Shown here: piece by piece, positions 18,609 through 64,000 of the stretch
Layout of the letters: every line of letters begins with the position of its first letter
Numbering within the stretch: the stretch's first letter is position 1
DNA from: Candidatus Micrarchaeota archaeon
GTDB lineage: Archaea > Micrarchaeota > Micrarchaeia > Anstonellales > Bilamarchaeaceae
Assembly (NCBI GenBank): GCA_040754495.1
Contig: JBFMCO010000022.1
Span: 24,908-88,907, forward strand
Direction: 5' to 3'
DNA length: 64,000 nucleotides
Notes under the pieces: model-generated
Seen by the model: only the letters and a program-made list of their open reading frames with translations
Told to the model about the DNA's origin: nothing
The model's database searches: none
Program-made: the position numbers and the translations under genes

Positions 18609-19532
18609 ATGATGCTCGCAGGACCCAGGGCCAGGCTTGCGCAGAGGGCTGCAAGGTTCTCTTCGTACGCGGTGCTTGCCGGCAGCCTGATGGGCGGATG
18701 CCATGACAAAGGCGGTGCCGCCCCTGCCGAAGACGGGGGCGCCGAACTTCCGTTCTACCGGCTTCCGAGGGAGAGGGACGCGTCAGCGCCGGATTCCGCA
18801 GGGGCAATGCCGCCGGCGGCTGCTCCGCCTGGCACGCAGAGCGCCATACGAGGCCCCCCGCCGCAACGCTCAAGCCTCGGCTGCCAGGACGGGATGGCGA
18901 ATGCGGGCAGGTACTGCATAGACGCTTACGAAGTCCACCTCGTGGACGGAACGGGCTCGCCCCGTCCCTATTACACGCGCCCGCCGGAGGACATGCGGGG
19001 GCTTAGGGCGGCGACTGCTCCGGGCGTGTTCCCGCAGGGCTACCTGAACCAGCTCCAGGCGCGCACGGCGTGCCGGAATGCGGGCAAGAGGCTCTGCACG
19101 CTCGAGGAGTGGCAGGGCGCGTGCAGGGGAAGCGGAGGCATGAGGTATCCATATGGCATGTCGTTCGAGGAAGGGAGATGCAATACGCTGAAGTCGCCGC
19201 ACATACTCGACAAAATCTTCCCGGACATACCGCACCTCCGGCGCATGGGCAGGGAGTTCAACGACCCGAGGCTCCTGCAGGAGCCGGGCTACCTGGCGAG
19301 GGGCGGCGAATACAGCGGCTGCGCCACGGAGAGCGGGATTCACGACATGGCCGGAAACCTCTCGGAATGGGTGGATGATTCCGTGGAGCGGGACGGCATG
19401 CTGTATGGGACTTTCGCGGGCGGACCTTTCAGCGGGCCGGTGAAAGGCGGGTGCGGGCACTGGACGAGCGTGCATGCGGCGAAATACTCGGATTACTCGA
19501 TAGGGACAAGGTGCTGCGCGGACGGGCGGTAG
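18609..19532 (+). CDS. FGE-sulfatase (SUMF1-like) domain lipoprotein
   Basis: Motifs CIDAYE, GKRLCTLEEWQGAC, GIHDMAGNLSEWV and GTRCC; N-terminal LAGSLMGG-C lipobox-like signal followed by a Pro/Ala linker. Confidence 0.85.
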   Translation: MMLAGPRARLAQRAARFSSYAVLAGSLMGGCHDKGGAAPAEDGGAELPFYRLPRERDASAPDSAGAMPPAAAPPGTQSAIRGPPPQRSSLGCQDGMANAGRYCIDAYEVHLVDGTGSPRPYYTRPPEDMRGLRAATAPGVFPQGYLNQLQARTACRNAGKRLCTLEEWQGACRGSGGMRYPYGMSFEEGRCNTLKSPHILDKIFPDIPHLRRMGREFNDPRLLQEPGYLARGGEYSGCATESGIHDMAGNLSEWVDDSVERDGMLYGTFAGGPFSGPVKGGCGHWTSVHAAKYSDYSIGTRCCADGR

Positions 19533-19547
19533 CGGTTTCCTGCCTTA

Positions 19548-20162
19548 TTATTTCGGGACGAACGAGACGCGCCTCCCTTCGACCGCATAAGCGCCTTTCG
19601 AGAAAGAGTCCACGACTTTCGCATACGCCTTGTGCTCGTGCGCGAGTATTTTCGCGGCGACCTCCTCCGCGCTAATGCAATCCGCGATATCCACGGCCTC
19701 CTGGTAGATTATGGGGCCGGCGTCCAGGCTCTCGTCCACGAAATGGATGGTGAGCCCTGACACCTTCGCGCCGTAGTCGAAAGCCTGCTTCTGCGCGTCC
19801 GAGCCCGGGAAGGACGGGAGGAGGGCCGGGTGGATGTTGATTATCCTGTTCCGGTACGCATCGAGAAGCGCCTTTCCCTTGAGGAGCAGCATGTAGCCGG
19901 CCAGCACGACGAGCTCCGCCCCGTATCGTTCAAGCAGCTCGAGGATGCGCATATCGAGCTCGCCGCGGCTCCCGAACGACTTCCGCTCCACCAGCTCGAC
20001 AGGGATGCCGTTCTCCTTTGCGATTGAGACGGCCGGCGCATCAGGGTTGTTGGTGATGAGCACCTTCACTTCTGCGTCGCAGCGGCCGGCACGGATTTCC
20101 CCGAGAATCGCGCTGAAGTTGCTTCCCCTCCCGGAGGCCAGGACCGCCACCTTGACTGCCAT
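19548..20162 (-). CDS. purN: Phosphoribosylglycinamide formyltransferase
   Basis: VAVLASGRGSNF, LAGYM, INIHPALLPSFPG and DESLDAGPII motifs. Confidence 0.95.
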   Translation of the reverse strand: MAVKVAVLASGRGSNFSAILGEIRAGRCDAEVKVLITNNPDAPAVSIAKENGIPVELVERKSFGSRGELDMRILELLERYGAELVVLAGYMLLLKGKALLDAYRNRIINIHPALLPSFPGSDAQKQAFDYGAKVSGLTIHFVDESLDAGPIIYQEAVDIADCISAEEVAAKILAHEHKAYAKVVDSFSKGAYAVEGRRVSFVPK

Positions 20163-20197
20163 GCATATATGCGGGGAGAAAATGTTTTAATTATCTT

Positions 20198-20500
20198 GTG
20201 CGAAAGGAGCGCATGGGGGAAAATTATTCCGGCAGGTTCGCGATACCGGATGTGCCGGGGACGGAGCCTATTGAGAGCATCGTGGCCAGGCTTCGGCGCG
20301 ACATCGCCTCCGATTGCTCGGGCCTCCTGCGGAGGGCGAAAACCGCCAGGGTGTCCCAGGCCGGCTCTTACCGGGCCCGCGTCTGGGAGAGCAGGATTTG
20401 CAGGATAATCGAGGCGAACGCGACGACTTTCAGCATACTGGAGCTGAGGCGGCTCAAGCGCGAATGCACCGTGCTTTCGCAGGAGCTGCGGGGATTCTGA
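20198..20500 (+). CDS. Hypothetical protein
   Basis: 100-aa ORF filling the gap between purN and the next gene. Confidence 0.4.
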   Translation: MRKERMGENYSGRFAIPDVPGTEPIESIVARLRRDIASDCSGLLRRAKTARVSQAGSYRARVWESRICRIIEANATTFSILELRRLKRECTVLSQELRGF

Positions 20501-20533
20501 GCCTTGCCCTTTGCGCAAGCCGCGTGGCCAGGC

Positions 20534-21718
20534 CTACTCTTCGGTTATCCTCAGATTAGGATTGCACATCGCCCGCTCGATGAATTGCATGTGCTCCATG
20601 CTTATCGGGGCGATGCCCGCCGCTTCCCGTATTTTCTGCCCGTCGAGCATCTCCTCGTGGCTGCGGCCGCCAAGGCTCGTGAAGATTGCGCCCGCGAGGA
20701 TGTCGGCCCACTTTCGCAGGAAATCCTCCCCCACCGCGAATGCCCCGGCGCCGAGCTGGCGCATGGAGCTGTCGAAAGACGGCAGTACCACCGTAACGTC
20801 AACTCCGTGCAGCATCATAGAGCGGAACGCTTCCGCCGGGTCGGAATAAAGCGCCTGGAGCATGTATGCCGCAATCTCCATCACGTCGCGCGGGAGCGGA
20901 ACGTTGCCGTTGGCCTCGCGCTCGAGCATATGGGCCACCTCGTGCGCGAATGCCGAGCCTATCTGCGCGTTCAGTGAGCGCATCAGGAACTCGCGGGGGC
21001 TGCCGCTTTCCGCGGCGATCGACGCGAGCCTGGATATCATCAGCCGCAGGCACGACACATCCAGCGCGAAAAGGACGCTTGCCTCCTCCGTCAGCCCTTC
21101 CGCGGCGAACGCCCTTGCGAGGGCCTCTCCGGCCGCCCCGGCCCCGGTCCTTGCAAGGGATATCCTCATGCCTTCCGGGCGGCAGTCCAGCTCTTCCGGG
21201 CCGGCCAGCCAGAAATCAAGCAGCTGCGCGAGCCTGGCGGCGTTCTGCGTGGCGTTGAGCTCGAACCACAGGAGGCCCTCCATGCCCATGTTGAACCTGG
21301 CCCGGCCCACCCTCATCCCGTCCGACTCGTCAAGGAACACGTGAACGGGCCGGCCGAAGGCCTCGAAACTGTGCAGCATGAGGCCCACGCTCTCCGGCCG
21401 GCCGAAGCGGGAGTGGAGCCCCCGGGAGAGGAACACCTCCCTTATCCCGGAGAGCACCTGGTGCCTCACGATTTCAGGGCTGTCGCCGCCGAGGGGGCGG
21501 AGGGCCTCCGAGATATCGCAGCGAAGGTTGTGATCCGTCATGCGCAGCTCCCGGATGAAGCGGCGCGAGGACGGGCCCGGGTTTCCGAACGCCTTTGCCA
21601 GCTTCAGGCCCTCCAGCACCGGCTCGTCAACTAGTCCTTTGAGCCGTCCGAACTTGAATGTCTTGCGCCGGAGCATGGGCGCGCAATATGACTTTATCTG
21701 CTCCTTGCCTACTGCCAC
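20534..21718 (-). CDS. Hypothetical protein with HExxH (zincin-like) motif
   Basis: AFAHEVAHMLE with a downstream glutamate (MEIAAY). Confidence 0.65.
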   Translation of the reverse strand: MAVGKEQIKSYCAPMLRRKTFKFGRLKGLVDEPVLEGLKLAKAFGNPGPSSRRFIRELRMTDHNLRCDISEALRPLGGDSPEIVRHQVLSGIREVFLSRGLHSRFGRPESVGLMLHSFEAFGRPVHVFLDESDGMRVGRARFNMGMEGLLWFELNATQNAARLAQLLDFWLAGPEELDCRPEGMRISLARTGAGAAGEALARAFAAEGLTEEASVLFALDVSCLRLMISRLASIAAESGSPREFLMRSLNAQIGSAFAHEVAHMLEREANGNVPLPRDVMEIAAYMLQALYSDPAEAFRSMMLHGVDVTVVLPSFDSSMRQLGAGAFAVGEDFLRKWADILAGAIFTSLGGRSHEEMLDGQKIREAAGIAPISMEHMQFIERAMCNPNLRITEE

Positions 21719-21829
21719 GTCATGATTATCCTAGGGAACGTTTTAAAAAGTGGTCTAACGTTAAATATGATGGGCAATGCTTCAAAATGATTTAATTCCT
21801 TGCCAATCCAGTACATCACGGCGGTAGTC

Positions 21830-22534
21830 ATGCTGAGCATCGTGATACCAACATACAACGAGGAGGAGCACATCGGGGGGCTCCTCGAATCACTTAAGCC
21901 TCAGCTCGCGGAAGGCGACGAGATAATAGTAGTGGACAGCCGCAGCCATGACCGCACAGCGGAGATAGCGCGGAGGCATGGCGCGAGGGTGATAGAGGAG
22001 CCCAAGAGAGGGAACGGCCTTGCGAGGACGGCCGGCGCGAGAGCCGCCCGGAACGGCATAGTGGTATTCGTTGACGCAGACTGCGTCCCCTCGGGCGGCT
22101 TCCTGGCGCGGATAAGGAGGCATTTTGCCTCGCAGGAGACCGTTGCCGTGGGCGGCCTCGACTTATATCACTCCGAATCCGGCCTGAACAGGCTCGTATA
22201 TGACACGTTTTCCAGGAGCGTGTTCTTTTCCGCCATGCTGACGCACGCGCTGACAGGCAGGTATTGGCTCGCCTCGAACAACTCCGCCTACAGGAAGGAC
22301 GTGTTCCTTTCCGCAGGCGGCTACCGCTCCGTGATATGCGAGGACACGGACCTCACGCGGAGGCTCCCTCCATCTAAGCACGTGGTGTATGACGCTCATC
22401 TCGTGCTCTCGCTCTCGGACCGCAGGTTCAAAAAAGACGGATTCCTGAGCACCATCTCGCTCTGGGGCAGGAGCAACATAGCCGCATGGACCGGCAGGGG
22501 CGCCGACAGCTCCGCCTACAAGACGTCCTATTAG
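21830..22534 (+). CDS. Glycosyltransferase family 2
   Basis: SIVIPTYNEE, VVDSRSHDRT, FVDAD and EDTDL motifs. Confidence 0.92.
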   Translation: MLSIVIPTYNEEEHIGGLLESLKPQLAEGDEIIVVDSRSHDRTAEIARRHGARVIEEPKRGNGLARTAGARAARNGIVVFVDADCVPSGGFLARIRRHFASQETVAVGGLDLYHSESGLNRLVYDTFSRSVFFSAMLTHALTGRYWLASNNSAYRKDVFLSAGGYRSVICEDTDLTRRLPPSKHVVYDAHLVLSLSDRRFKKDGFLSTISLWGRSNIAAWTGRGADSSAYKTSY

Positions 22535-23985
22535 GCGCGCTTCCATCTGACGCCGCCGGCCGCGGCCTTGTCCTCGAGCATGATGCCTGCTTCCTTCAGC
22601 CTCGCCCGGATGGCATCCGACTTCCCGTAGTCCTTTTTGGCTCTCGCCTCGTCGCGCATGCGGATTAGCGCCTCGAGCGCCGCCTCCGCGCTTCCGGCCG
22701 CCGGCGCCCCGAATTCAAGCAGGAGCGCGGAGAGCGCCGCGGCCAAATCATCGAGGCCAGCCTTCTTCTCCTCGAGGCCGAGCACCCACAGCATGCCTGA
22801 AAGCGAATCCGAGACCTTCCGGAGCTGCTCGTGGTCTACGCGGCCGCTCATGTGGGCATTCGCGATGCGGAGCAGGTTGAAGAGGGAGGCGATCGCCTCG
22901 GGCGTCCGGAGGTCGTCTTCCATGCAGGCGTGGAAGTCCGCAATCAGCGCGTCGCTCTTTTTCCTGAATTCCTCGTCCCTGTGCCCGTCGCCCTTCGTGG
23001 TGTCTATCTCGCGGATGAGGCCCAGCGAGTTGAATATCCTCTCCACGCTCTCCTCCATCGAGTCGAGAACGTCCTCGTCGTAGTCAAGCGGGCTGCGGTA
23101 GTGGGCCTGGAGGTAGAAGAGGCGGAGGGCGTTCGGGCTGCTCCGCGATAGGGCCTGCGCAAGCGTCACGAAGTTCCCGAGGGACTTGCTCATCTTCTCC
23201 CCTTCCACGGTCAGGAAGCCGAAGTGCATCCAGTGCCTGCAGAACTGCTCCCCGCTCGCAGCCTCGCTTTGCGCGATTTCGTTCTCATGGTGCGGGAATA
23301 TCAGGTCCCGCCCCCCGCCGTGGACGTCGAGCGTGCCGCCCGCGTACTTTCCCGCCATCGCAGAGCATTCTATGTGCCAGCCGGGCCTCCCCCTGCCCCA
23401 GGGGCTGTCGAACTCGATGATTTCGCCGCTCGTCTTTTTCCACAGCGCGAAATCGGCCGGGTCCTTCTTCGTTTCCTCGACCTCGAAGCGCGAGCCGGCC
23501 CGTATCTCCTCCAGGTTCTGCCCCGAGAGCGAGCCGTAACGGGGGAATGAGGAGATGTCGAAATAGACGCCGCTTTTCGTCTCGTACGCCTTCCCGCGCG
23601 CAATCAGCTTCTGCACGAGCGCGATGATGTCCGGGATGTGCCCTGTGACCTTCGGATAGACGTCGGCCGGGAGGATGGAGAGCTTGCCAAAAAGCTCGAG
23701 CGCCTCGTCGTGGTTGGCTTTCGTCAGCGCGGCCGGGTCTGCCCCGGTCTCCTTGCAGCGCCTGATTATCTTGTCGTCAACGTCGGTTATGTTCTGGATA
23801 TGGTAGATGATATGCCCACTGCGGAGGAGGTAGCGCTTCAGCACGTCGAATGAGACGTACGCCCGGGCGTGGCCTATGTGCGCGCTGTCGTAGGGGGTGA
23901 GGCCGCAGACGTACATCACGACCTTCCTGCCGCGCGGCGGGGAGAAGTCTTCCGCCCGCTTTGTGAGCGAATTGAAAAGGCGCAT
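22531..23985 (-). CDS. cysS: Cysteinyl-tRNA synthetase
   Basis: YVCGLTPYD, HIGH, GRPGWHIECSAM and KMSKS motifs; likely start ATG at 23985. Confidence 0.97.
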   Translation of the reverse strand: MRLFNSLTKRAEDFSPPRGRKVVMYVCGLTPYDSAHIGHARAYVSFDVLKRYLLRSGHIIYHIQNITDVDDKIIRRCKETGADPAALTKANHDEALELFGKLSILPADVYPKVTGHIPDIIALVQKLIARGKAYETKSGVYFDISSFPRYGSLSGQNLEEIRAGSRFEVEETKKDPADFALWKKTSGEIIEFDSPWGRGRPGWHIECSAMAGKYAGGTLDVHGGGRDLIFPHHENEIAQSEAASGEQFCRHWMHFGFLTVEGEKMSKSLGNFVTLAQALSRSSPNALRLFYLQAHYRSPLDYDEDVLDSMEESVERIFNSLGLIREIDTTKGDGHRDEEFRKKSDALIADFHACMEDDLRTPEAIASLFNLLRIANAHMSGRVDHEQLRKVSDSLSGMLWVLGLEEKKAGLDDLAAALSALLLEFGAPAAGSAEAALEALIRMRDEARAKKDYGKSDAIRARLKEAGIMLEDKAAAGGVRWKRA

Positions 23986-24087
23986 CGGAGATTTGTGCGC
24001 TCGAAAAATATTTATAAAGATACCATACGAGTATAAGCCCAAACCGCTCCGGAATCCGGAGGGGAGTCTAGCAGGGAGGTATTGATT

Positions 24088-24459
24088 ATGGCAGAAGAGA
24101 AAAAAGAGGTCAAAGCGCCTGCGATGGCGTCGACCACCGTCTCTGGGCTGAGCAATGAGAGCAAGTTGTGGGCGGCGTTGTGCTACGTCTTCCCCATCCT
24201 CATGTTCATCCTGGTCTACGTGATGGAGGACAAGAAGAAGGACAAGTTCATCTTCTTCCATGCATGGCAGAGCCTCCTGGCAGGCCTTGCGGGCTGGGCA
24301 ATCTCCATGGTGATTGCGGTCGTCACGTTCGGCATCGGCTCGCTGTGCTTCCCGGTTTACTGGCTGGTGCTGCTCTACTTCGCGTACAAGGCATACCAGG
24401 GCGAGAAGTTCCTGCTGCCGACGATTGGCCCGATGGCCGAGCAGTACGCCAGCAAGTGA
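24088..24459 (+). CDS. DUF4870-like small membrane protein
   Basis: AALCY...KFIFFHAWQSL...AYQGEKFLLPTIG pattern. Confidence 0.8.
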   Translation: MAEEKKEVKAPAMASTTVSGLSNESKLWAALCYVFPILMFILVYVMEDKKKDKFIFFHAWQSLLAGLAGWAISMVIAVVTFGIGSLCFPVYWLVLLYFAYKAYQGEKFLLPTIGPMAEQYASK

Positions 24460-31321: not shown

Positions 31322-31490
31322 GGGCTCGTAGCTCAGCATCTTGAGGGAAAAGCGCCTAACAATGGGTTTTGGCCCAGCTTTTCCCAAAAGCTGGAAGCAG
31401 AGCACTCGCCTTGCAGTTTCCTCGAAACCGGAAACGGGAAACAGGAGACCGGAACGCGAGGGGCCGGGGGTGCGAGTCCCCCCGAGTCCA
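31322..31490 (+). tRNA. tRNA-Ala(UGC) with a 37/38 intron (31416-31454) and ~56 nt of D-loop intron sequence (within 31338-31398)
   Basis: Acceptor GGGCTCG/CGAGTCC+A with G3-U70; D-stem GCTC/GAGC; anticodon stem CTCGC/GCGAG; TGC at 31412-31414; T-stem GGGGG/CCCCC. Confidence 0.85.
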
Positions 31491-34076: not shown

Positions 34077-34079
34077 GGC

Positions 34080-55074: not shown

Positions 55075-56568
55075 TTAGTGGCTGTAGTTCAGCCTGAGCA
55101 GGACGAGCGGCGCAGCCTCGAAGGGATTGAACTGCATGTCGGCAAGGCCCGCCGCCTGTATGGAGAGCCTGTCGAGCAGCTCGAGGTCTATCGCGCCGCC
55201 AAGGAGCGCGCTGCCTGCGTGCATCCCGGAGCCCGAGGCGTTCATCGCGCCGCCCGCAAGGACAGACGGTATGAACGGCCCGGCCCTGAAGAGCGGCACG
55301 CCTACGAGGCCCCTGAAGTGGAGCTCGTCGTCCGACAGCCTTACCGCGCCCACAGTCCCGGGCGTGTCTGCGCCGACCAGCGCATGCATCCAGAGCATGT
55401 TCACCTCTGCCCAGGGATTGTAGCCGTCCACCCAGCCCCACGGAATCTCGCCGCGGAGGCGGACGCCAAGGGGATTGAACGGGTTGTTGCTGCCGAAGAC
55501 GCCGAGGGAGAAGTACCTGCCGTAGCGGTAGCCGCCTTCCCCGCCAAGCTCGTAGCCGTGCGACAGCTCGTTTAGCGTCTGGCCGTCAAGGTGCGAAAGT
55601 ATCGACGTCGAAATGCCGCGGTAGCCGCCGAAGACGAGGGCGTAAACCGAATGCTCGCCGAAGCGCAGCTCGCCGCCGGCACCGATTGCGCCGGTATAGC
55701 TCCGCAGGCCGCTTGTGGCCTGGCTGGTCTGGAGCGTGAGCGCGTAAGACGAGAAGCGCCCGTTTACGAGGATGGAGAGATGGTCGCCTACCGGGACGTA
55801 CCCGGTCGCGCCGGCAAGGTACGCGTCGCCCGAATTGCCCATAGAGCCGAAGCGGGAGAGCTGGAGGCGCTCGCCGTTGAAATCGAACACTGGCCTCCTG
55901 ACGCGCACAGGCTGCACCGGCGGTTGCTCGGGCCGGACGACCGGGGCAACAGGCTGCACCGGCTGTACCGGCCGGACGGGCGCCGGAGGCGCTTCAACCC
56001 TCACGAGCTCCAAGAAACCGTTCGGAGCCGTGACCGAGAACGTGTGGCGGCCTGCAGGGACGCTGAGCGTAATCTCTATGGGCGTGCCTATCGCGAGCGT
56101 GGTCTGGTCTATCTCGCGGTGCGTGAATCCGGAGATGCGCGTGGTGCCTGGAGCCGTGGACGGCGTCTGCTCGCCACCGGCAGGGCCGAGCGAATATTCA
56201 ATCGGCCTGGACACCTCGGTGGTGCCCTCCGGGAAGCGGTCCCTGCGCACGGCTGGGTAGAACCGGACGGTGAATCTGGCGGGACCTTCGATCGTGAGCG
56301 TTGGGACATTGACGTCGCCTGCTTTGAGATAGACGTCGCGCGTCGCGCTCCCGTCGGTTATGCTCGTCCTCTCGCCGCTGACCGAATGCACCGGCTGCGC
56401 GGCCTGCGTCGTGGCATGCACCTCGGGCTCCTGTGCCCGGGCGACGTTGTCAAGAAGCGGCGCCCCCAAAAGAATGGCGCCTGCGAGGGCGTATTTGGAT
56501 GCCGCCCGTCCTATTGAGCCCCTCTGGCGGCTCAAAGACTCCGCACTTTCTCTGTTGGAAAATTTCAT
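55075..56568 (-). CDS. Secreted protein with C-terminal putative beta-barrel domain
   Basis: Signal peptide ending ARA-Q, an N-terminal beta domain, a PVQP linker, then ~270 aa of Gly/aromatic alternating strands ending LLRLNYSH. Confidence 0.75.
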   Translation of the reverse strand: MKFSNRESAESLSRQRGSIGRAASKYALAGAILLGAPLLDNVARAQEPEVHATTQAAQPVHSVSGERTSITDGSATRDVYLKAGDVNVPTLTIEGPARFTVRFYPAVRRDRFPEGTTEVSRPIEYSLGPAGGEQTPSTAPGTTRISGFTHREIDQTTLAIGTPIEITLSVPAGRHTFSVTAPNGFLELVRVEAPPAPVRPVQPVQPVAPVVRPEQPPVQPVRVRRPVFDFNGERLQLSRFGSMGNSGDAYLAGATGYVPVGDHLSILVNGRFSSYALTLQTSQATSGLRSYTGAIGAGGELRFGEHSVYALVFGGYRGISTSILSHLDGQTLNELSHGYELGGEGGYRYGRYFSLGVFGSNNPFNPLGVRLRGEIPWGWVDGYNPWAEVNMLWMHALVGADTPGTVGAVRLSDDELHFRGLVGVPLFRAGPFIPSVLAGGAMNASGSGMHAGSALLGGAIDLELLDRLSIQAAGLADMQFNPFEAAPLVLLRLNYSH

Positions 56569-56668
56569 GGACTTACATTAACTAAAACACTTTAAAAACG
56601 TGTCGCTTGATGAGGTTGTCTGTTGCTGGGTAGGCCCATTTAAAATACTTTCGAACATAAAGTATAAC

Positions 56669-58795
56669 ATGCAAAAATCCGAGGACGGCAGCGACGGCTC
56701 CGGACGTCGCAAGAAGGACGCCCTCAGCGGCAAGTCGAGGATGGCCATCCCGCTCCGCAGCATGATGGCGAGCGAGGAGCCGGCGGTCGAGGGACTCGCC
56801 GCACAGCCCGACGCGATGCTGCAGGGCGCGCGCATCGACAAGACGCCGCAGGACTTCTACCTCGTCGAGGGCATACTCGGCGAAGGCGGCATGGGCAGGG
56901 TATACCGGGGCAGGATGATAAAGACCACCAAGCCGAAGAAGGGGAAAGAGGGAGAGGAGAAAGGGGCCAAGACCGTGATCAACAGGGAAGTCGCCATCAA
57001 GGTCATAAACTTCGATTCCGCGTTCGCGAACGCGGACCCTGCAAACATCGAGCAGACAAAGAAGATGATGTACGACCGCTTCCTGAGCGAGGTCGAGCTG
57101 GTCGCAAAGCTCAAGCACCCGAACATCGTGGATATTCTTGATTTCGGGGAGCTGGACGACGGGAAGCCTTTCTGCGTGATGGAGCTCCTGAAGGGGCAGG
57201 ACCTCGACCAGGTGATTGAGGCCGCAGGCATGCTTCCCTGGGATTTCACGAAGACGGTGGCGGTGCAGGTCTGCAAGGCCCTCGAGGCGGCGCATGGCTA
57301 CGAGGAGGACGGCGAGAAGAAGCCCATCATCCACCGCGACATCAAGCCGCTGAACATATTCCTCCTCCAGGACAAGGAAGGGGAGTGGGTGGTGAAGGTG
57401 CTGGATTTCGGCCTGGCAAAGCTGCTTGCGCCGAGCTCCAGCGAGCTCACGCTAAAGGGGGAAGGCGGGTTCGGCACGCCCGGCTACATGTCCCCGGAGC
57501 AGGCATGGGGCCTGACGATGGACGAGAGGACGGACATATACGCCGTCGGAGCGGTCTTATACCACATGCTGACCGGGACCACGCCCTTCACCTTCTATCT
57601 GGACAAGGCACGCGCTGACTTCCCGACTACTGACGAGTTCAATGCTTACCAGCACAACAAGTGGAACGAGTTCAAGGAGAAGCTCTGGAAGACCAAGCCC
57701 AAGACGGTTCGCGAGGTCGTGCCCGGCGCCGACGTTTCTGAGCAGGTCGAGGCTATAGTGATGAAGTGCCTCGCCAGCGACCCGAAGAATCGGTTCCAGA
57801 GCATCAAGGAGCTGAAGGACGCCATTACAGCCCTCAACGGGGAAAAGAACGCGAACGGGGCGGAGGAGCAGAAGATGCCGTCCGTTCCGGAAACAGAGCT
57901 TCCTTCGGTGATTATCAGCCCCGGGGAGCCCTACGCGAGAGTGGAGCCAACGGCACCGGCCCAGGACGTGCAGGCTGCCGAGGAGGACATGAAGACCGTG
58001 CCGAGGCAGGCCAAGCCCGAGGCCGGCGCAGATGAGGCGGCAGTGCAGGAGGCTGCGCAGTCTGCGGCCCAGCCCGAACCCGCCATGAGCGCGGAAGACG
58101 CAGCCAGGGTTCTGGAGCAGGCGGACCTTCCCGAGGCATCATCGCGGTACGAGAAGACAGAGATAGTCAGGATACGGGACCTCAAGCCAAAGGGCGCACG
58201 TACGGACGAAACGGCGGTGGATGTTGCAGCGCCCAAACGAAGGAGGCTTGCCAAGTTCATTGCCGCGGGCGCTGCTTTGGCCGTGCTCGGCGCAAGCGGG
58301 GCGTATATCGTGACAAGGGCTGGGAGCCATGAGAGCGAGCCGATTGCGCAACAGAGCGCGAAGCCCCCGGCCGCGAATCCGGGGCCGCCAAGGGCCAGGG
58401 ACCCCATTCCCGAGCCAGCGCGTACGGACATCGCTACACCGGCGCCGCCCGCGGCGGATGCCGCACCGGAGGCAGCAGTAGTGCAGGAGCATACGATTAC
58501 AATCAGGACAGGGGTTTCGGGAGTCCGCGTCATCAGGGATGGCGAAACGGCGTGCACTACAGCCAGGGACGGCAGCTGCGCGCTCACGATAGGGCATGGC
58601 AGCGAGCCGGTCGAGCTGAGGCTCGCCAGGCGCGGATACCAGGACGCCACCGCGAGCGTAGTCCCGGACCAGGACCGCACGGTTGATGCGTCGATGGAGC
58701 GCGCGCCGACAAAGGTGCAGGGCAGCACGCCGCAGCCCCACACGCCAAGGATAACGGACGAGGGCGACAGGCCGAGGATAAGGACAGAGGAATGA
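56669..58795 (+). CDS. Membrane Hanks-type Ser/Thr kinase with extracellular PEGA-like domain
   Basis: LGEGGMGRVY, VAIK, HRDIKPLN, DFGLAK, GTPGYMSPEQ, DIYAVG; TM helix; LARRGYQD segment. Confidence 0.93.
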   Translation: MQKSEDGSDGSGRRKKDALSGKSRMAIPLRSMMASEEPAVEGLAAQPDAMLQGARIDKTPQDFYLVEGILGEGGMGRVYRGRMIKTTKPKKGKEGEEKGAKTVINREVAIKVINFDSAFANADPANIEQTKKMMYDRFLSEVELVAKLKHPNIVDILDFGELDDGKPFCVMELLKGQDLDQVIEAAGMLPWDFTKTVAVQVCKALEAAHGYEEDGEKKPIIHRDIKPLNIFLLQDKEGEWVVKVLDFGLAKLLAPSSSELTLKGEGGFGTPGYMSPEQAWGLTMDERTDIYAVGAVLYHMLTGTTPFTFYLDKARADFPTTDEFNAYQHNKWNEFKEKLWKTKPKTVREVVPGADVSEQVEAIVMKCLASDPKNRFQSIKELKDAITALNGEKNANGAEEQKMPSVPETELPSVIISPGEPYARVEPTAPAQDVQAAEEDMKTVPRQAKPEAGADEAAVQEAAQSAAQPEPAMSAEDAARVLEQADLPEASSRYEKTEIVRIRDLKPKGARTDETAVDVAAPKRRRLAKFIAAGAALAVLGASGAYIVTRAGSHESEPIAQQSAKPPAANPGPPRARDPIPEPARTDIATPAPPAADAAPEAAVVQEHTITIRTGVSGVRVIRDGETACTTARDGSCALTIGHGSEPVELRLARRGYQDATASVVPDQDRTVDASMERAPTKVQGSTPQPHTPRITDEGDRPRIRTEE

Positions 58796-58796
58796 C

Positions 58797-60608
58797 ATGA
58801 GCGTCAAGAACAGCGGCGCGAAGCCTCCGGAAACAAGGGAAGCCCCGGTTTCAGGCACTTCTGTGAAGAAACAACAGCCGCTGCAGGAGGGGCCGGCAGG
58901 GAAAGCGCCCCTCGCCCCGCCGGTGCCGGAAAGCGATTTCAGCTCAGGAGAAGGCCAGACAGCGCAGAGAAAGGACACCCTCATCGGCACCAAGGTGGAC
59001 GGAAGGTACAAAATAGAGGAGCTGCTGGGGAGCGGCGGCTACGGAAAGGTGTATCTGGCCAAAGACGAGAAGCTGTTCGGAAACAAGGTGGCGCTCAAGA
59101 TGCTCTACCCGCCCGGAAAGGACGAGAACCCGATGGAGGTCCTTGAGAGGCTCAACCGCTTCGAGAGGGAGGCCCAGGTGGCGTCCAGCCTGAACCACCC
59201 CAACATAGTGAGGGTGACCGACTTCGGCAGGACCGAGGACAAGGCGCCGTACTGCGTGATGGAATTCGTGGAGGGCGGCTCGCTCCAGGATGAGATTTCC
59301 AGCGACCGGATGATGCCGCTCAGCAGGTTCTTCTCGATAGCTGTGCCGGTCTGCGATGCCCTGAACCTTGCGCACGAGAAAGGGATTATACACCGCGACC
59401 TGAAGCCGGCGAACATCCTCCTGACCGAGCCTAACGGCAGCGTCGTGCCGAAGATAAGCGATTTCGGGCTTGTGAAAGTCGTTGCGCCGCAAAAAAACGA
59501 AGGGGAGGCGACCCAGCTCACGCAGGTGGGCAGCATACTTGGGACTCCCGAGTACATGCCGCCAGAGCAGATAACTGGGAGGGTGATGGACGAGCCGGGC
59601 ATCGACATATACGCCATGGGCGTCACCATGTACCAGACGCTCTGCAAAAAAATCCCGTTCGAGGAGGCTTTCGACCGGGAGCGCAGGGGCGAGCTGCAGT
59701 TCATGGTCGTGCAGAAGATGGTCCAGAAAGAGAGGCCGAAATCCCCTTCCGAAATCCGCGGCGATATCCCGAAAGAGCTGAGCGACCTTATTATGGAGTG
59801 CCTCGAGAAAGACCCGCAGAAGCGCCCGCCTTCCATGAAAGCGATAAAGAGCTCGCTCGAGCGGTGCGCCCGCAAGCTCCAGGCAGCGCACACGCAGAAA
59901 AGGATGCAGGAGCCGGCCAGGGCCCAGGCACCAAAACCTGCCGCCCGCCCCGATGGGGATGCCGGGATGACGATGGTCATACCCCAGAATCCCGCGCCAA
60001 AGAGGCCCGGAAAGATGGTGGTGGCCGGCGCGATAGCCGGCGTGCTCGCGGCGGCAGGATTCGGCACAGTCATGCTTTCGGACTTGAGACAGAGCAGGGG
60101 GGACCGCATCAACGAATCGGCGCAGGCGCCGGATGCCTGGGTGGAGAGGGCGCCGGAGCCGCACAAAGCCCCGGAGCCGGCGCGCCCGGCCAGGAAAACG
60201 TTCCAGATTACGTTCGTGACAGAACCGGGAGGCGTCGAAGTGTCGGCAGGCGGGGAAACGTTCTGCACGACTTCCGGTGAGGGCGTATGCCAGAAAAGGG
60301 TCGAGGAGGGGGCGGAGCTGGAATTCGAGTTCAGGAAAGACGGCCACGTTGCAAAGCGTAAGGGGATTGTCCCTGACGCGGACATGGTCGTGAAGGTAGA
60401 GCTTGAACCTATAAGGAAGAAAAGCGAGCGCCAGCCGGCGAAGCTCGTGCCTCTGCCGCCCCGCGAGGGCCCTCCTGCGGCCAAGGCTGTACCCAAGGAA
60501 GAGCCGCGCGTGAAGCCCGCGGAAACCAAGCCCGAAAAGCACAGCCCGAGGATTACTGATGAGGGCGATGCGCCGAAGAAGCCAAGGATAACCGATGAGG
60601 GGGGCTAG
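58797..60608 (+). CDS. Membrane Hanks-type Ser/Thr kinase with extracellular PEGA-like domain
   Basis: LGSGGYGKVY, VALK, HRDLKPAN, DFGLVK, GTPEYMPPEQ, DIYAMG; TM helix; VTEPGGVEV...FRKDGH segment. Confidence 0.93.
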   Translation: MSVKNSGAKPPETREAPVSGTSVKKQQPLQEGPAGKAPLAPPVPESDFSSGEGQTAQRKDTLIGTKVDGRYKIEELLGSGGYGKVYLAKDEKLFGNKVALKMLYPPGKDENPMEVLERLNRFEREAQVASSLNHPNIVRVTDFGRTEDKAPYCVMEFVEGGSLQDEISSDRMMPLSRFFSIAVPVCDALNLAHEKGIIHRDLKPANILLTEPNGSVVPKISDFGLVKVVAPQKNEGEATQLTQVGSILGTPEYMPPEQITGRVMDEPGIDIYAMGVTMYQTLCKKIPFEEAFDRERRGELQFMVVQKMVQKERPKSPSEIRGDIPKELSDLIMECLEKDPQKRPPSMKAIKSSLERCARKLQAAHTQKRMQEPARAQAPKPAARPDGDAGMTMVIPQNPAPKRPGKMVVAGAIAGVLAAAGFGTVMLSDLRQSRGDRINESAQAPDAWVERAPEPHKAPEPARPARKTFQITFVTEPGGVEVSAGGETFCTTSGEGVCQKRVEEGAELEFEFRKDGHVAKRKGIVPDADMVVKVELEPIRKKSERQPAKLVPLPPREGPPAAKAVPKEEPRVKPAETKPEKHSPRITDEGDAPKKPRITDEGG

Positions 60609-60616
60609 GGGCCTCC

Positions 60617-60665
60617 GGTTTCCTGTTTCCGGTCTCCCGTTTGGGTTTTGCGATTTCTGGTTTGG
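60617..60665. repeat. 7-nt periodic repeat array (NGTTTCC orientation)
   Basis: GGTTTCC TGTTTCC GGTCTCC CGTTTGG GTTTTGC GATTTCT GGTTTGG directly after the kinase stop codon. Confidence 0.7.
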
Positions 60666-60801
60666 ATAAGGGAGGGGGAAAAAGGAAAATCAGGACCTCA
60701 GGGGGAGTCGACCTTGTCGCCTGGCGACAAGGTGCGCCTTGAAAGTGCCCTTTCAAGTGCGCTGAAAGAACCACCTGGGAATACATCAGAGGTTCTTTCT
60801 T

Positions 60802-61653
60802 TCACTGGCAGACGTGAGTCAGCTGGTTGCAGACCTCGCCCTGCACGCAGTCCGCGTTGTCGTCGCAGAAGCCGGTCTTGGCGCTGCAGAAGTGCTCGCT
60901 GTCGCACACCTGCCACGTGCCGCAGTCCGCGTTCGAGCCGCAGCGGTCCTTGGACGGGGTGCACCTGTGCGTCTTGTCGCTGCAGAACTCCCACGTGTTG
61001 CATTCGTTGTCGCCGAGGCAGTAGCCCTGGCGCGCGATGCACTTCTTGGACGCGAGGTCGCACTTGGACCAGGCCTGGCAGTCCTCGTCGTTTATGCAGA
61101 AGCCGACCTTCGGGTTGCACAGGTGCGTCTTCACGTCGCAAGCCTGCCACGTCTCGCAGTCGCCGTCAAGCTCGCAGCGGCCTTCCAGTATGTAGCAGCG
61201 CTTGCTCACGATGTCGCATTTCTCCCATGAATCGCAGTCCGTGTCCTTGAGGCAGTATCCCGGAGCCGGCCCGCACTGGTGCGTGGCCGGATTGCAGAAC
61301 TCGAAGACAGGGTCGCACTGGGAATCGGAATCGCAGAAGCCTGGCGAGGGCCTGCAGTGCTGGGTGGAGTCGCACACCTGCCAGCTCTCGCAGTTCGCAT
61401 TCGTGCGGCAGAAGCCCTCCTGATATACGCAAAGGTGCGTCTTGGCGATGTCGCACACTGTCATGTTGTCCTTCGCCTTGCACGTGTCGTCGGTCTCGCA
61501 GTAGCCAGGGAGGGTGGCGCATGTGCCGCCCGTGGTGTTGCAGAACTGCCACGACTTGCACTGCGTGTTGTCCTTGCACGACGAGGCGCCCCTCCCGCCG
61601 CATCCGGCGATGAGGAGGGCCACAACGATAAGTCCGAATAAGAGAAGCTTCAT
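60802..61653 (-). CDS. Cys-rich repeat lipoprotein
   Basis: MKLLLFGLIVVALLIAG-C, then about twelve ~20-aa units of C..D.DC..W..C....H.C...G. Confidence 0.88.
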   Translation of the reverse strand: MKLLLFGLIVVALLIAGCGGRGASSCKDNTQCKSWQFCNTTGGTCATLPGYCETDDTCKAKDNMTVCDIAKTHLCVYQEGFCRTNANCESWQVCDSTQHCRPSPGFCDSDSQCDPVFEFCNPATHQCGPAPGYCLKDTDCDSWEKCDIVSKRCYILEGRCELDGDCETWQACDVKTHLCNPKVGFCINDEDCQAWSKCDLASKKCIARQGYCLGDNECNTWEFCSDKTHRCTPSKDRCGSNADCGTWQVCDSEHFCSAKTGFCDDNADCVQGEVCNQLTHVCQ

Positions 61654-61676
61654 GGGGGAGTATTGGATTGAATGAT

Positions 61677-62342
61677 TTATAAGGTTTGCAGGAGGGCCGG
61701 GAGCTCCCCTACATCCCGTATGGAGAACTCCGCCGATGTAGGGATATTGGCGTGTTTCCCGGAAATGAGCCTCACGGTCCTGATGCCGACCGCGCGGGCC
61801 GGGGCGATGTCCGTATCCTCGCGGTCGCCGACCATGAGGCAGGTTTCGGGTTTCGCGTTCAGGGTTTTGAGTATCTTCTGGTAGAAGCCTTCGCCCTTGT
61901 CCTCCCCGAGTTCCTCGGACACGAACACTTCGTCGAAATACAGGGCAAGCCGCAGGCGGATGAGCTTGTCCCACTGCTTTATCGAGTTGCCCTGCGTCGC
62001 GACGAAGAGCCGGTAGCCGCGCTCGCGCAGGGTCATGAGGGCGAGGGGTACCCTCGGGAAAGGCGCAATCGAGGTTTTCGTGTCATGGTAGGCGGCTACG
62101 GCCGCGGCCACGTACCGGGCCGGGCTCGTCTGGCCGAGCTCCAGGCAAAGCTCGTCGAAATGATGCGGGTAGTTGGAGCCCTTGCGCTCTATTATGGTTT
62201 TGAGTTTTGAGTTAAGGGTTTCGTGATCGGCCGGAAGGCCCATGCTTATCATGGCGTTCAGCGCGTTCTTCCTGGCAAGCGCCGAGAACTCCGTGGATGG
62301 GAAGAGGGTATCGTCTATGTCGAAAAGGAGGTGGCTCACCAT
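61677..62342 (-). CDS. HAD-superfamily hydrolase
   Basis: LLFDIDDTL, K at GEDK, and MVGDREDTDI motifs. Confidence 0.92.
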   Translation of the reverse strand: MVSHLLFDIDDTLFPSTEFSALARKNALNAMISMGLPADHETLNSKLKTIIERKGSNYPHHFDELCLELGQTSPARYVAAAVAAYHDTKTSIAPFPRVPLALMTLRERGYRLFVATQGNSIKQWDKLIRLRLALYFDEVFVSEELGEDKGEGFYQKILKTLNAKPETCLMVGDREDTDIAPARAVGIRTVRLISGKHANIPTSAEFSIRDVGELPALLQTL

Positions 62343-62369
62343 GGCTAATAGATTGGGGAAGAGGGAATA

Positions 62370-62680
62370 AAATGCTACGGGACAGGCGGTTCAGGAAAGC
62401 TCCGGGGATAACACCTGTGCTCGGTGGTTTTCGGTCTTCAGTTTCCAGTTTCGTTTTCATCGAAACCGGAAACAGGCAACCGGAAACCCCGAATGATGGC
62501 AGTTTATGTCTGGGAAAGTCCGGATGTACTGGTTCAGGAAAGCTCCGGGGATAACACCTGTGCTCGGTGGTTTTCGGTCTTCAGTTTCCAGTCTCGTTTT
62601 CATCGAAACCGGAAACAGGCAACCGGAAACCCCTTATGATGGCAGTTTATGTCTGGGAAAGTCCGGAAATGCTACGGGAC
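62370..62680. repeat. Two 137-bp near-identical units (62388-62524, 62531-62667) flanked by a 14-bp direct repeat
   Basis: The units differ at about 3 nt and each holds an inverted heptamer hairpin; AAATGCTACGGGAC occurs at 62370-62383 and 62667-62680. Confidence 0.9.
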
Positions 62681-63544
62681 GCGGACGGTCAGCACCCAGT
62701 TGCAGCGCTCGCCCGGGGAGCCGAGGGTGAGGCCGTTCAGGCTCAGCCTGCTGGAGCTCACTATCGTCGTATGGTCGCCGCAGCGGACGCCGCCGCAGGA
62801 GGCCGAGGCGCTCTGGAGGGTCAGCACCCCGCTTTCGCTCACGAGTATGGAGAACCGCACATCGACCTCGGTGGTCTCGTTCACCCCGAGGGCCGAACGC
62901 AGCTCCCTCGCCCTGCCCGAGATGGCGCCGGTTATCCTCCTTATCACGCTCTGCACGGTCGGGGATTGCGCGCTCACGACATCGCGGGATTCGTCCGTGG
63001 CCACCTGCGTGGGGCAGGACCACAGGGATGCCGGCACCGAGATAGGGACCGGTTCCGGCTCGCGCACCCTTCGCGTGCGCCGTGGTGCCGGCTCGACGCA
63101 GTCGCGCGAGCAGTCCGCGCATGTCTCCGTTATGGAGATGGTACCGAACTCGAAGACGCCGCCGTCGCGGCGGACAAGGGCCTCGTATGGCTGGTCATGG
63201 TCTTCCACGCCGTTTCCGCAGTGGAAATCAACGTCGCAGACGAACTTCCTCTGCTCGATGCGGCTGGCCCATGAGGGCTGCTCCCATTCCTGGGCTATGC
63301 CGTCGCCGCAATACCCGCAGCTCTCCGGGTCCCAGTTCGCCGACCTCGGGTCGGCCTCGGCCTTGTCGAGCTCGCAGCGGCCGTCCCCCCTTGCCGGCCG
63401 CGGCTCGCTAAGGGGGGCCTCGGGGCATTCGCGATGATTGGGCTCGGTCTGCGGCTCGCGCGTCCTCCATACGAGAAGCCCCAGGGCTGATGCTGCGAGC
63501 AGGGTGCTGGCTGCGAACTTGAGCTTGTATCCGGGGCGTTCCAT
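62672..63544 (-). CDS. Membrane-anchored Cys-rich protein with TonB-C/AgmX-like C-terminal domain
   Basis: N-terminal TM helix; CGYCGDG and HCGNG...ETCADCSRDC motifs; Pro linker; C-terminal domain paralogous to the next gene. Confidence 0.75.
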   Translation of the reverse strand: MERPGYKLKFAASTLLAASALGLLVWRTREPQTEPNHRECPEAPLSEPRPARGDGRCELDKAEADPRSANWDPESCGYCGDGIAQEWEQPSWASRIEQRKFVCDVDFHCGNGVEDHDQPYEALVRRDGGVFEFGTISITETCADCSRDCVEPAPRRTRRVREPEPVPISVPASLWSCPTQVATDESRDVVSAQSPTVQSVIRRITGAISGRARELRSALGVNETTEVDVRFSILVSESGVLTLQSASASCGGVRCGDHTTIVSSSRLSLNGLTLGSPGERCNWVLTVRVP

Positions 63545-63556
63545 GGGGTTTGCCTC

Positions 63557-64000
63557 TTACTGGGTGCCCTCCCTTCTTATGGTGACCGGGACGTCTGCAT
63601 AGCAGTCCTGCTCCACGCCGGGCACCGTCACGCCCTGCAGGCTGAGCTGGCTTATGCCGATGACGTCGGCCTGCTGCGGGCATGCCTGGCCGCTGCACGA
63701 AGCGGCCGCGCTCCTCACGCTGACAGCGCCTGCAGTGGTCACGCCCACCCTTACGGTTACGAGAACGTCCTGGTCCCCGGCGCCGAGCGCGCTGCGCAGC
63801 TCCCCTGCCTTCCTGTTGAGGCCGCCGCTCGTGCGCATGACCAGAGTCCTGTTGTTGCCGACGTGCGACGGGCATCTCTCCTCCTGCTGCGGGGGCGGCT
63901 GCGGAGGGGGCTCGTCGCACTGGCACGAGGTGTTGCACGTGCCGGCTGTGCCGCACCTCGAATTGGGCGGGTCGCACTGCTCGCCCGGGTCCACCCTGTT
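63557..64000 (-). CDS. Cys-rich protein (5'-truncated), paralog of 62672-63544
   Basis: NRVDPGEQCD motif (myxobacterial Cys-rich repeat style); shared ELRSALG...SAxASCxG...LSLxG segment. Confidence 0.75.
   Translation of the reverse strand, partial: NRVDPGEQCDPPNSRCGTAGTCNTSCQCDEPPPQPPPQQEERCPSHVGNNRTLVMRTSGGLNRKAGELRSALGAGDQDVLVTVRVGVTTAGAVSVRSAAASCSGQACPQQADVIGISQLSLQGVTVPGVEQDCYADVPVTIRREGTQ

Follow-up and report, generated by a model that had tools for sequence, protein, structure and literature searches.

We consider it likely that the region studied here is an ordinary Micrarchaeota chromosome with its own surface and signalling genes of mixed origin, and that one of these genes, encoding a lipoprotein of the FGE-sulfatase fold, alone came from Myxococcota. 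The "myxobacterial look" of the others would be convergent. An initial annotation had taken each of these sequence styles as characteristic of Myxococcota; the affinity holds for the FGE gene, and the resemblance in the rest of the set appears to be mostly convergence.

Results

Genomic setting of the surface and kinase genes

The window, the whole stretch of 64,000 nucleotides that was analysed, belongs to a contig from a Micrarchaeota MAG of 1.63 Mb (completeness 80%), a larger genome than is usual for Micrarchaeota. ORF and Pfam analysis found all 11 surface and kinase genes where the initial annotation had placed them, interspersed with archaeal housekeeping genes for the DP2 subunit of PolD with its intein, CysRS, PurN, AlaX, RpiA and the C-terminal part of GuaA. 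DP2 matched its three Pfam families at E 1e-104 to 1e-119. The similar GC reported for both gene sets was borne out, as GC3 is uniform at about 0.72–0.85 across them, and the proposed DPANN identity agrees with the names of homologues in other records (Candidatus Micrarchaeota, Micrarchaeia or Bilamarchaeum). The archaeal genes next to the FGE gene are as follows.

19548-20162, minus strand: PurN (Pfam)
20534-21718, minus strand: unknown gene in the block from PurN to CysRS
21800-22534, plus strand: GT2 glycosyltransferase (Pfam)
22531-24261, minus strand: CysRS (Pfam)
25103-29983, minus strand: archaeal DNA polymerase D large subunit (DP2) with LAGLIDADG intein (PF24846, PF24844, PF03833 and intein domains)

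Further copies of the surface and kinase families occur on other contigs of the MAG, which holds nine DGG-family genes, about 12 kinases (8 contigs), two FGE genes and three CGDG genes. Synteny is kept in independent assemblies for the FGE block, for the DGG pair with the VTT gene, and for the trio of kinase, Cys-rich and CGDG genes; therefore, the contig is not the bacterial–archaeal chimera that the initial annotation had allowed for. The surface and kinase genes truly belong to a DPANN (Micrarchaeota) archaeon and are linked to archaeal housekeeping genes.

The FGE-fold lipoprotein

18609-19532, plus strand: FGE-sulfatase-fold (SUMF1/EgtB/PvdO-type) lipoprotein, PF03781, with a lipobox-like ...LMGGC

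This protein matched PF03781 with 37.9 bits (cut-off 23.3) over profile positions 101–197 of 255, and NCBI names its homologues as SUMF1/EgtB/PvdO family. The best matches are from Micrarchaeota (59%), and the named matches within the top 120 consist of two from Micrarchaeota and 12 from Polyangiaceae, Sorangium or Myxococcota, with no others. A single Polyangiaceae genome contains 14 matches (best 47% identity, E 1e-44). Matches at E<=1e-25 were found in 38 of 151 Myxococcota genomes, often in multiple copies and including cultured Sorangium; the best match in five genomes of Planctomycetota, Acidobacteriota and Chloroflexota was about 1e-6. The Polyangiaceae and Sorangium proteins of this type match the window's protein over about 220–250 aa (36–49% identity) and share its ...G.RC..D end, and many of them are small and exported. 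These PF03781 proteins are bacterial, whereas the window's gene belongs to an archaeon.

Within the Micrarchaeota sample the gene is confined to the window's genus, one of 85 sampled, occurring in 3 of 7 other genomes there and in 0 of 143 elsewhere. In a midpoint-rooted tree, whose root was not inferred and most of whose sequences carry no taxon label, the two archaeal groups cluster with the Myxococcota-bearing set, the second one inside the Myxococcota-bearing part with support 88. An archaeal contig of 681 kb (GCA_964647855.1) carries the orthologue P0012 in the order FGE-PurN-x-GT2-CysRS, as in the window.

The FGE gene alone combines nearest non-self relatives in Myxococcota with a narrow spread in the recipient phylum. 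It is the only gene of the set specifically related to myxobacterial genes, and its distribution fits an old transfer from a bacterium to an archaeon. An ancestor of the genus may have taken it from a Polyangia-like member of the Myxococcota, after which the gene would have been duplicated and fully adapted to the composition of its host. The myxobacterial origin proposed in the initial annotation is thus retained for this gene, whose nearest non-archaeal relatives are in Polyangiaceae and Myxococcota, and is given up for most of the others.

True formylglycine-generating enzymes carry a catalytic Cys pair. Inspection, which is not a rigorous test, revealed no evident CxxxxC pair near the ...RCCADGR end of the lipoprotein. 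The sole solved relative found was SUMF2, a remote match (E 1e-4) with a partial alignment, and Pfam showed no sulfatase gene in the window.

The DGG-stalk surface proteins

31369-32262, plus strand: DGG-stalk protein 1, with lipobox-like Cys, D/G stalk and 97-aa two-Cys beta-sandwich head; its start is probably internal to this ORF
32272-32865, plus strand: DGG/DAG-stalk protein 2
32976-33500: VTT-domain membrane protein, 3' of DGG/DAG-stalk protein 2
39362-40072, plus strand: GGSGG/AGG-stalk member of the family
40138-41175, plus strand: DGG-stalk member that has an additional middle domain and, after the Cys, an ...NLYIPIPP motif
41181-42458, plus strand: DGG-stalk member, likewise with the additional middle domain; its stalk is the longest of the five

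Each of the five paralogues has a lipobox-like Cys and a D/G/A/T-rich or GGSGG stalk, and the C-terminal domain of 97 aa is common to all, with a mean column identity of 73%. The family occurs in 7 of 11 genomes of the genus and in one genome of a sister genus; searches found neither the family in 163 other Micrarchaeota genomes nor its domain in 201 Myxococcota genomes. Its relatives are archaeal only, which argues against acquisition from myxobacteria. A search of 1.84 billion proteins gave 155 matching cluster representatives, nearly all of which are small proteins with the domain at their C-terminus. The stalk differs from genome to genome (DGG, GGSGG, KPDSK, TDTGTE, GNSSGG), and the DGG pair followed by the VTT gene has the same arrangement on an independent JGI contig.

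The head is confidently predicted as an 8-strand beta-sandwich (pLDDT 96). Archaeal S-layer-type domains (DUF11/CARDB; M. acetivorans DUF1608, PDB 3u2g) gave TM-scores of 0.54–0.70 to it; these are generic fold matches that lack sequence similarity, and the bacterial CcmF_C and RodZ_C domains scored equally well or better. The DGG proteins may represent a fast-evolving paralogue family, in which a disordered stalk, acidic or rich in Gly, links a lipobox-like anchor to a two-Cys beta-sandwich head. A role in adhesion or contact at the surface seems to us most likely for them.

Receptor-type Hanks kinases

56600-58795, plus strand: receptor-type Hanks Ser/Thr kinase 1 (STK1; PF00069), with kinase, one TM, two-Cys PEGA-like ectodomain and PRITDEG tail
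58797-60608, plus strand: receptor-type Hanks Ser/Thr kinase 2 (STK2; PF00069), with the STK1 layout and two PRITDEG motifs at the end

The PF00069 scores were 137 bits for STK1 and 182 bits for STK2, and the Hanks motifs VAxK, HRDxKPxN, DFG and PE are visible in both. Both have one TM helix and a beta-rich ectodomain of about 70 aa, and their layout would be that of a cytoplasmic kinase joined through the helix to a small PEGA-like ectodomain. The initial annotation had described two membrane Hanks kinases with PEGA-like ends. The kinases are confirmed, whereas PEGA (PF08308) remained below the cut-off in STK1 (17.5 against 20.8 bits, spanning profile positions 3–65 of 71) and gave no match in STK2.

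Full-length kinase copies are present in 7 of 7 sampled genomes of the genus and are patchy in the family. STK2 has one 73% orthologue, followed by matches of at most 44% identity over about half of the query in diverse bacteria; the named ones are from Sericytochromatia, Acidobacteriota, Pirellulales and Actinomycetota, and Myxococcota are absent from the named top matches. In the kinase domain, the identity of any of the kinases to a bacterial relative does not exceed about 45%. When a profile built from the archaeal kinases was searched at E<=1e-76, it matched about 40 of 121 Myxococcota (best 290 bits), 16 of 121 Acidobacteriota (281 bits) and 3 of 121 Planctomycetota (265 bits), a gradient in which the best scores lie within 10–25 bits. 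The MAG kinase on contig C41 grouped weakly with Myxococcota sequences (support 83) in a tree with a poorly resolved backbone, and FastTree clustered the archaeal kinases with Myxococcota and Acidobacteriota at 95*, on long branches. FGE-fold genes adjoin kinases on MAG contig C56 and at G089:C5, and bacterial kinase-FGE domain fusion proteins exist (P0158).

The two kinases resemble the PknB-like PEGA receptor kinases of bacteria in their Hanks motifs, single TM and small beta-rich ectodomain, and some of the top bacterial matches carry PF08308. Unlike the bacterial proteins, they have an archaeal host, a lineage-specific PRITDEG tail and no close bacterial orthologue. These comparisons indicate that the kinases are of bacterial type and were expanded in the archaeal family, with Myxococcota matches modestly better than those of Acidobacteriota and no clear donor. 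Some of them could also be myxobacterial in origin.

The Cys-rich lipoprotein, the CGDG proteins and the conserved trio

55075-56568, minus strand: secreted beta-rich protein, divergent from the kinases
60802-61653, minus strand: Cys-rich repeat lipoprotein (DUF5885; PF19232)
62672-63544, minus strand: CGDG/CGNG protein 1 (CGDG1), with CG[DN]G...E.CD motif
63557-64000, minus strand: CGDG/EQCD protein 2, with CG[DN]G...E.CD motif, its N-terminus cut by the contig end

The Cys-rich lipoprotein matched PF19232 with 44.2 bits (cut-off 33.2) in four stretches. Its orthologue is single-copy in 25 of 27 genomes of the family and is also found across the order and much of the class, and its identity declines from 79% in close kin to 36% in distant ones. 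Searches of Myxococcota gave weak repeat matches, none better than E 1e-13. The protein appears to be a vertically inherited Micrarchaeota protein; this pattern, in which identity tracks kinship, speaks against acquisition from myxobacteria. In a language-model search it came nearest to Myxococcota Cys-rich lipoprotein clusters (0.88), which is a lead only.

Of the 27 homologues of CGDG1, those with a name all come from Micrarchaeota, Micrarchaeia or Bilamarchaeum, which speaks against a myxobacterial source for the CGDG proteins. Their CG[DN]G...GE.CD motifs also occur in the Cys-rich acidic repeat TIGR02232 (myxo_disulf_rpt); over the rest of its sequence, CGDG1 has homologues in Micrarchaeota only. 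Neither of the window's two CGDG proteins matched TIGR02232 at E<=0.1, and the CGDG orthologue of genome G050 matched it at E 0.01 with 15.6 bits, below the cut-off of 20.8.

In genomes G118 and G050, STK1 orthologues adjoin the Cys-rich gene, and both genomes conserve the whole kinase, Cys-rich and CGDG trio. This kept arrangement suggests that the kinase next to the Cys-rich lipoprotein and the CGDG protein may form an envelope-sensing unit. The neighbouring beta-rich protein had no Pfam or NCBIfam match and no match in five Myxococcota genomes, and the PD40 lipoprotein had no real match in Myxococcota.

Discussion

Because a specific kinship with myxobacterial genes was seen for the FGE lipoprotein alone, our results give no sign that a myxobacterial toolkit was taken over wholesale, or of a myxobacterial host. 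Most genes of the set have archaeal, vertically inherited best homologues. The large-scale gene acquisition from myxobacteria that had been proposed is not supported by the DGG, Cys-rich and CGDG proteins, whose relatives are archaeal only, or by the kinases, which lack a clear donor. We suggest that convergence, and not bulk gene transfer, would account for the myxobacterial look: a lipobox with a low-complexity stalk, disulfide-rich extracellular modules, and sequences rich in Gly, Asp and Ala at 60% GC.

A broader transfer from Myxococcota, which would include the Hanks kinases and perhaps the Cys-repeat modules and reflect a physical association (host, prey or predator), seems unlikely to us. 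The FGE result would stand under it, and it draws on the highest kinase profile scores being in Myxococcota, the way archaeal kinases group weakly with Myxococcota and Acidobacteriota, and the C41 kinase with Myxococcota, the long-branched FastTree cluster, the adjacency and bacterial fusion of kinases and FGE-fold genes, and the sub-threshold TIGR02232 match. However, the ceiling of about 45% identity to bacterial kinase domains, the lack of Myxococcota among the named top STK2 matches, Acidobacteriota scores within 10 bits of those of Myxococcota and the poorly resolved kinase backbone all count against it, as do the DGG domain in 0 of 201 Myxococcota genomes, the vertical or archaeal-only Cys-rich and CGDG proteins, and the PD40 and beta-rich proteins without a real Myxococcota match. 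Moreover, shared genes can stem from a common habitat without any partnership. We regard as distinctly less probable still that the genus is a symbiont, prey or parasite of Polyangia-type myxobacteria, with which it lives in close contact, and that it drew the FGE lipoprotein and some receptor kinases from them; if true, this would be a DPANN archaeon with a bacterial partner. The bacterial host or predator raised in the initial annotation cannot be identified from one transferred gene family.

The direction of the FGE transfer may also be questioned, as midpoint rooting puts the main archaeal clade to one side of the root. A birth of this FGE-fold subfamily in Micrarchaeota and a later passage into Myxococcota is nevertheless very improbable, given its restriction to one of the 85 sampled Micrarchaeota genera, its often multicopy presence in 38 of 151 diverse Myxococcota genomes, cultured Sorangium among them, and the position of the second archaeal group. 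The high GC for a DPANN genome and the bacterial look of several genes might suggest myxobacterial fragments joined onto an archaeal contig during assembly or binning. Such an artefact has the least chance of all, because the genes are interleaved with archaeal housekeeping genes of equal GC3, their orthologues are syntenic in independent assemblies, and the families recur on many MAG contigs and in most genomes of the genus. We therefore favor a Micrarchaeota chromosome with its own repertoire and a single gene from Myxococcota.

According to the available text of PMC12892359, inter-domain and inter-phylum transfer enlarged Micrarchaeota genomes, those of Anstonellales and others; it deals with metabolic genes, and the donors it names are archaeal, Thermoplasmatota and Halobacteriota. 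Like the genomes described there, ours is larger than usual for Micrarchaeota and contains acquired genes. In contrast, the acquired gene here encodes an envelope protein from a bacterial phylum, and the term Myxococcota is absent from that available text. The donor signal is limited to one gene family common to a Micrarchaeota genus and Myxococcota, which indicates at least a shared habitat. To our knowledge, few partners of DPANN archaea have been established, and these are other archaea; a donor signal that points clearly to one bacterial phylum is thus a useful lead.

This study also cautions against reading ancestry from a taxon-typical style, such as low-complexity stalks or Cys-rich modules. 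The archaeon's own lineage-specific surface repertoire would account for most of the set and is worth study in itself, in particular the diversifying family of putative stalked adhesins and the trio in which a kinase is conserved beside a Cys-rich lipoprotein and a CGDG protein. We also observed a lipobox-like Cys after a hydrophobic segment in the FGE, DGG-family and Cys-rich proteins, for which lipid anchoring is predicted.

Assignment of the gene set

The initial annotation had described the envelope and signalling genes of the window as a myxobacteria-style toolkit, either acquired on a large scale from myxobacteria or mimicking them. Our analysis supports a myxobacterial derivation only for the FGE family. 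Most members of the set have their best homologues among archaea, with vertical or lineage-specific inheritance, and this speaks against a large-scale myxobacterial origin.

Gene content and linkage to the archaeal chromosome

ORF listing, translation and Pfam/NCBIfam scans located every gene named in that annotation:

18609-19532 (+), FGE-sulfatase-domain protein (PF03781) with a lipobox-like Cys
31369-32262, first of five stalked paralogues with D/G/A/T-rich or GGSGG stalks
32272-32865, second stalked paralogue
39362-40072, third stalked paralogue
40138-41175, fourth stalked paralogue
41181-42458, fifth stalked paralogue
56600-58795 (+), Hanks kinase STK1
58797-60608 (+), Hanks kinase STK2
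60802-61653 (-), Cys-rich DUF5885 lipoprotein
62672-63544 (-), CG[DN]G/E.CD protein CGDG1
63557 to the window end (-), second CG[DN]G/E.CD protein

Interspersed among them are archaeal housekeeping genes, namely PolD DP2, CysRS, PurN, an AlaX-like editing protein, RpiA, DUF359 and the GuaA C-terminal subunit, and GC3 is alike in the surface/kinase and housekeeping sets (0.72-0.85). In the PolD DP2 gene (25103-29983, minus strand), an intein with a LAGLIDADG domain occupies product residues ~925-1362. ARAGORN found no tRNA across the whole window; Rfam gave one partial tRNA match at 36309-36366 on the minus strand (model positions 10-63, 30 bits).

The window covers positions 24908-88907 of its contig and reaches the contig end. 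The MAG comprises 1.63 Mb in 72 contigs, with about 60% GC and an estimated completeness of 80%; its phylum-mates in the genome search have genomes of 0.6-1.6 Mb. The nearest named homologues of two of the genes belong to “Candidatus Micrarchaeota archaeon”, “Candidatus Micrarchaeia archaeon” and “Candidatus Bilamarchaeum sp.”, in agreement with the DPANN assignment. Since loci sampled from the genus (L002-L006, L049-L051 and L059-L060) range from 41% to 61% GC, this genome lies at the high-GC end, which helps to explain its Gly/Asp/Ala-rich low-complexity sequence.

A bacterial-archaeal chimera was ruled out by synteny shared across independent assemblies. A different assembly has an orthologue of the FGE-fold protein (P0012, 56% identity) on a contig of 681 kb, where the order FGE-PurN-x-GT2-CysRS is kept; the pair of stalked-protein genes followed by a VTT membrane protein gene also occurs on a JGI contig; and the kinase, Cys-rich and CGDG neighbourhood was found again in two further genomes of the genus. 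All the gene families also occur on further contigs of the MAG. These results indicate that the linkage of the genes to the archaeal chromosome is genuine.

FGE-fold lipoprotein and the Myxococcota

The FGE-fold lipoprotein is the gene with a clear affinity to Myxococcota. A global search gave 166 matches, and those named among the best 120 were two Micrarchaeota (59% and 48% identity) and 12 Polyangiaceae/Sorangium/Myxococcota, with no other phylum named. Matches at E<=1e-25 were present in 38 of the 151 Myxococcota genomes sampled, often several per genome; a single Polyangiaceae genome had 14, the top one (47% identity, E 1e-44) equalling the genus-mate matches in strength. In Planctomycetota, Acidobacteriota and Chloroflexota, five genomes in total, the best matches reached only E about 1e-6. 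Among the sampled genomes of the phylum, the gene was confined to the window's genus, where it occurred in three of the seven other genomes, and was found in 0 of 143 Micrarchaeota genomes outside that genus.

In a maximum-likelihood tree of 125 sequences, 22 rows formed the main archaeal clade (SH-aLRT 98), among them the window copy, both named Micrarchaeota and two genus-mates. A second archaeal trio, formed by a copy on another contig of the MAG (C56), one from genome G144 and the homologue P0083, was placed with support 88 inside the part of the tree (99 rows) that contains every named Myxococcota sequence. The bacterial member P0033 has bacterial neighbours, and GC3 of the window gene is now like that of its host. 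The economical reading is that the gene would have passed in an old transfer from Myxococcota to the ancestor of this genus and then been duplicated. Gene gain by horizontal transfer is documented for larger Micrarchaeota, with archaeal donors named in part of that account (PMC12892359); an envelope gene with a Myxococcota donor adds a new case to this known process.

The protein belongs to the FGE fold as a distant member, with SUMF2 (E 1e-4) as its sole solved relative. Its enzymatic role is uncertain, because no canonical catalytic Cys pair was seen in it.

Hanks kinases

STK1 and STK2 are complete Hanks kinases. Each has a single TM helix and an ectodomain of ~70 aa with two Cys, whose PEGA match is below the cut-off in STK1 and absent in STK2. 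Each of the seven genus-mates sampled had full-length Hanks kinases (2-11 matches), which also occur patchily across the family (up to 14). Matches in the remaining phylum were mostly weak, in ~200-aa frames, and we take these to be Bud32/Rio-type kinases. The Hanks kinases are an expansion at family level. The phylum kinase tally, and probably the FGE and DUF5885 tallies, include the unpublished genome G029, which has only a weak kinase match and on which no claim depends.

Apart from one orthologue at 73% identity, matches of STK2 were <=44% identical over about half of the query. The named sources of these lower matches were Sericytochromatia, Acidobacteriota, Pirellulales and Actinomycetota, with no Myxococcota among the named matches. 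A profile built from nine MAG kinases scored highest in Myxococcota (about 40/121 genomes at E<=1e-76, best 290 bits), with Acidobacteriota close behind (16/121 genomes, 281 bits) and Planctomycetota lower (3/121 genomes, 265 bits). An STK2 search with arbitrary 8-mer patterns drew haphazard bacterial kinases of 24-41% identity, used only as labelled outgroups. The backbone of the kinase tree was unresolved; most archaeal kinases formed a weak group (support 81), and one was placed with Myxococcota (support 83). The kinases are of bacterial type, and these results single out no donor.

Both kinases end in the motif PRITDEG, which occurs once in STK1 (58700-58795) and twice in STK2 (60530-60608); PRITEEG occurs twice inside another protein of the MAG (contig C39), and the orthologues in genomes G118 and G050 end in KPPMRVKP(I/V)W instead. 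Beside STK1, on the minus strand (55075-56568), lies a gene for a secreted, beta-rich protein of 497 aa with a PVQP-rich linker. It is divergent from the kinases, belongs to no Pfam/NCBIfam family and had no match in five FGE-rich Myxococcota genomes.

Cys-rich and CGDG proteins

A single orthologue of the DUF5885 protein is present in 25 of the 27 genomes of its own family, and orthologues extend to most of the order's remaining families and to several more in the class. Sequence identity declines as kinship becomes more distant, from 51-79% in the genus to 41-58% in the family and 36-46% beyond, which indicates vertical inheritance. In a language-model atlas the nearest neighbours are Myxococcota Cys-rich lipoproteins, at a score (0.88) that counts as no more than a lead. 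As a sign of origin it is contradicted by the vertical archaeal distribution; Myxococcota matches were partial Cys-repeat hits within large unrelated proteins (E 1e-13 at best). The likeness to the atlas neighbours is purely stylistic. For CGDG1 there are 27 homologues, of which all the named ones are Micrarchaeota. The “myxo_disulf_rpt” model TIGR02232 had no match in the window's CGDG copies and a sub-threshold one in a single orthologue (E 0.01).

DGG stalked family

The five stalked proteins, here called the DGG family, share a 97-aa C-terminal domain, with nine copies in the MAG. In the genus, seven of 11 genomes matched its profile, as did one genome of a sister genus, against 0/163 other genomes of the phylum and 0/201 Myxococcota genomes. 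An exhaustive search of 1.84 billion representatives gave 155 matches only, nearly all of them small proteins that end in this domain; a lipobox-like Cys was recognisable in about 65 of the 150 matches listed. The family is archaeal and lineage-specific.

Stalks are DGG/TDGG or GGSGG in the window, KPDSK/KAD in the C56 copies, and DAxPDA, TDTGTE or GNSSGG in genus-mates. This variation among genomes indicates that the stalk is a generic disordered spacer and that its “myxobacterial” flavour is compositional. The AlphaFold2 model of the C-terminal domain is an 8-strand beta-sandwich (pLDDT 96). Foldseek against the PDB gave nothing at E<=0.001; the structural neighbours are all generic (DUF11/CARDB S-layer-type domains and CcmF_C), with a weak match to an M. 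acetivorans S-layer domain. The DGG proteins are probably surface contact or adhesion proteins. In a subset (window 40138-42458 and many other members), the motif (D/E)N(Y/L)(Y/V/I)PIPP directly follows the lipobox Cys, and these proteins carry an extra ~110-aa two-Cys middle domain.

A putative envelope layer and its kinases

Three or more genomes of the genus (also G045) have an STK1-type receptor kinase, the Cys-rich lipoprotein and a CGDG protein encoded side by side. The order of kinase, convergent DUF5885 lipoprotein and CGDG/GE.CD protein is found at:

window 56600-64000
L059 (G118:C30:4149-7997)
L060 (G050:C2:17738-21589)

We infer that anchored, stalked and disulfide-rich proteins make up an envelope layer, which the receptor kinases may partly read out. 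Complex prediction for the STK1 ectodomain and the Cys-rich lipoprotein scored 0.00, which is evidence neither way. The suggestion of a bacterial host for this archaeon rests on very little; a sequencing-run look-up found 31% of words in one groundwater study, too little for a statement on co-abundance.

The MAG holds a second envelope cluster on contig C56 (L052, G000:C56:10000-24000, ~3003-11150), with an FGE-fold lipoprotein, a PD40 beta-propeller lipoprotein, a cytoplasmic Hanks kinase, a TrmB-like regulator, two repeat lipoproteins and three stalked-family genes with K/D/S/P-rich stalks in place of DGG. The PD40 lipoprotein gave generic repeat matches only in the five FGE-rich Myxococcota genomes. 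There are hints in these sequences that the FGE fold may act as a kinase-linked sensor domain. FGE-fold genes lie within 1.5-2.5 kb of Hanks kinase genes in two genomes (G089:C5:20296-23337 and L052 3003-6303), and one of the top bacterial matches of STK2 (P0158) combines kinase and FGE-sulfatase domains in one protein.
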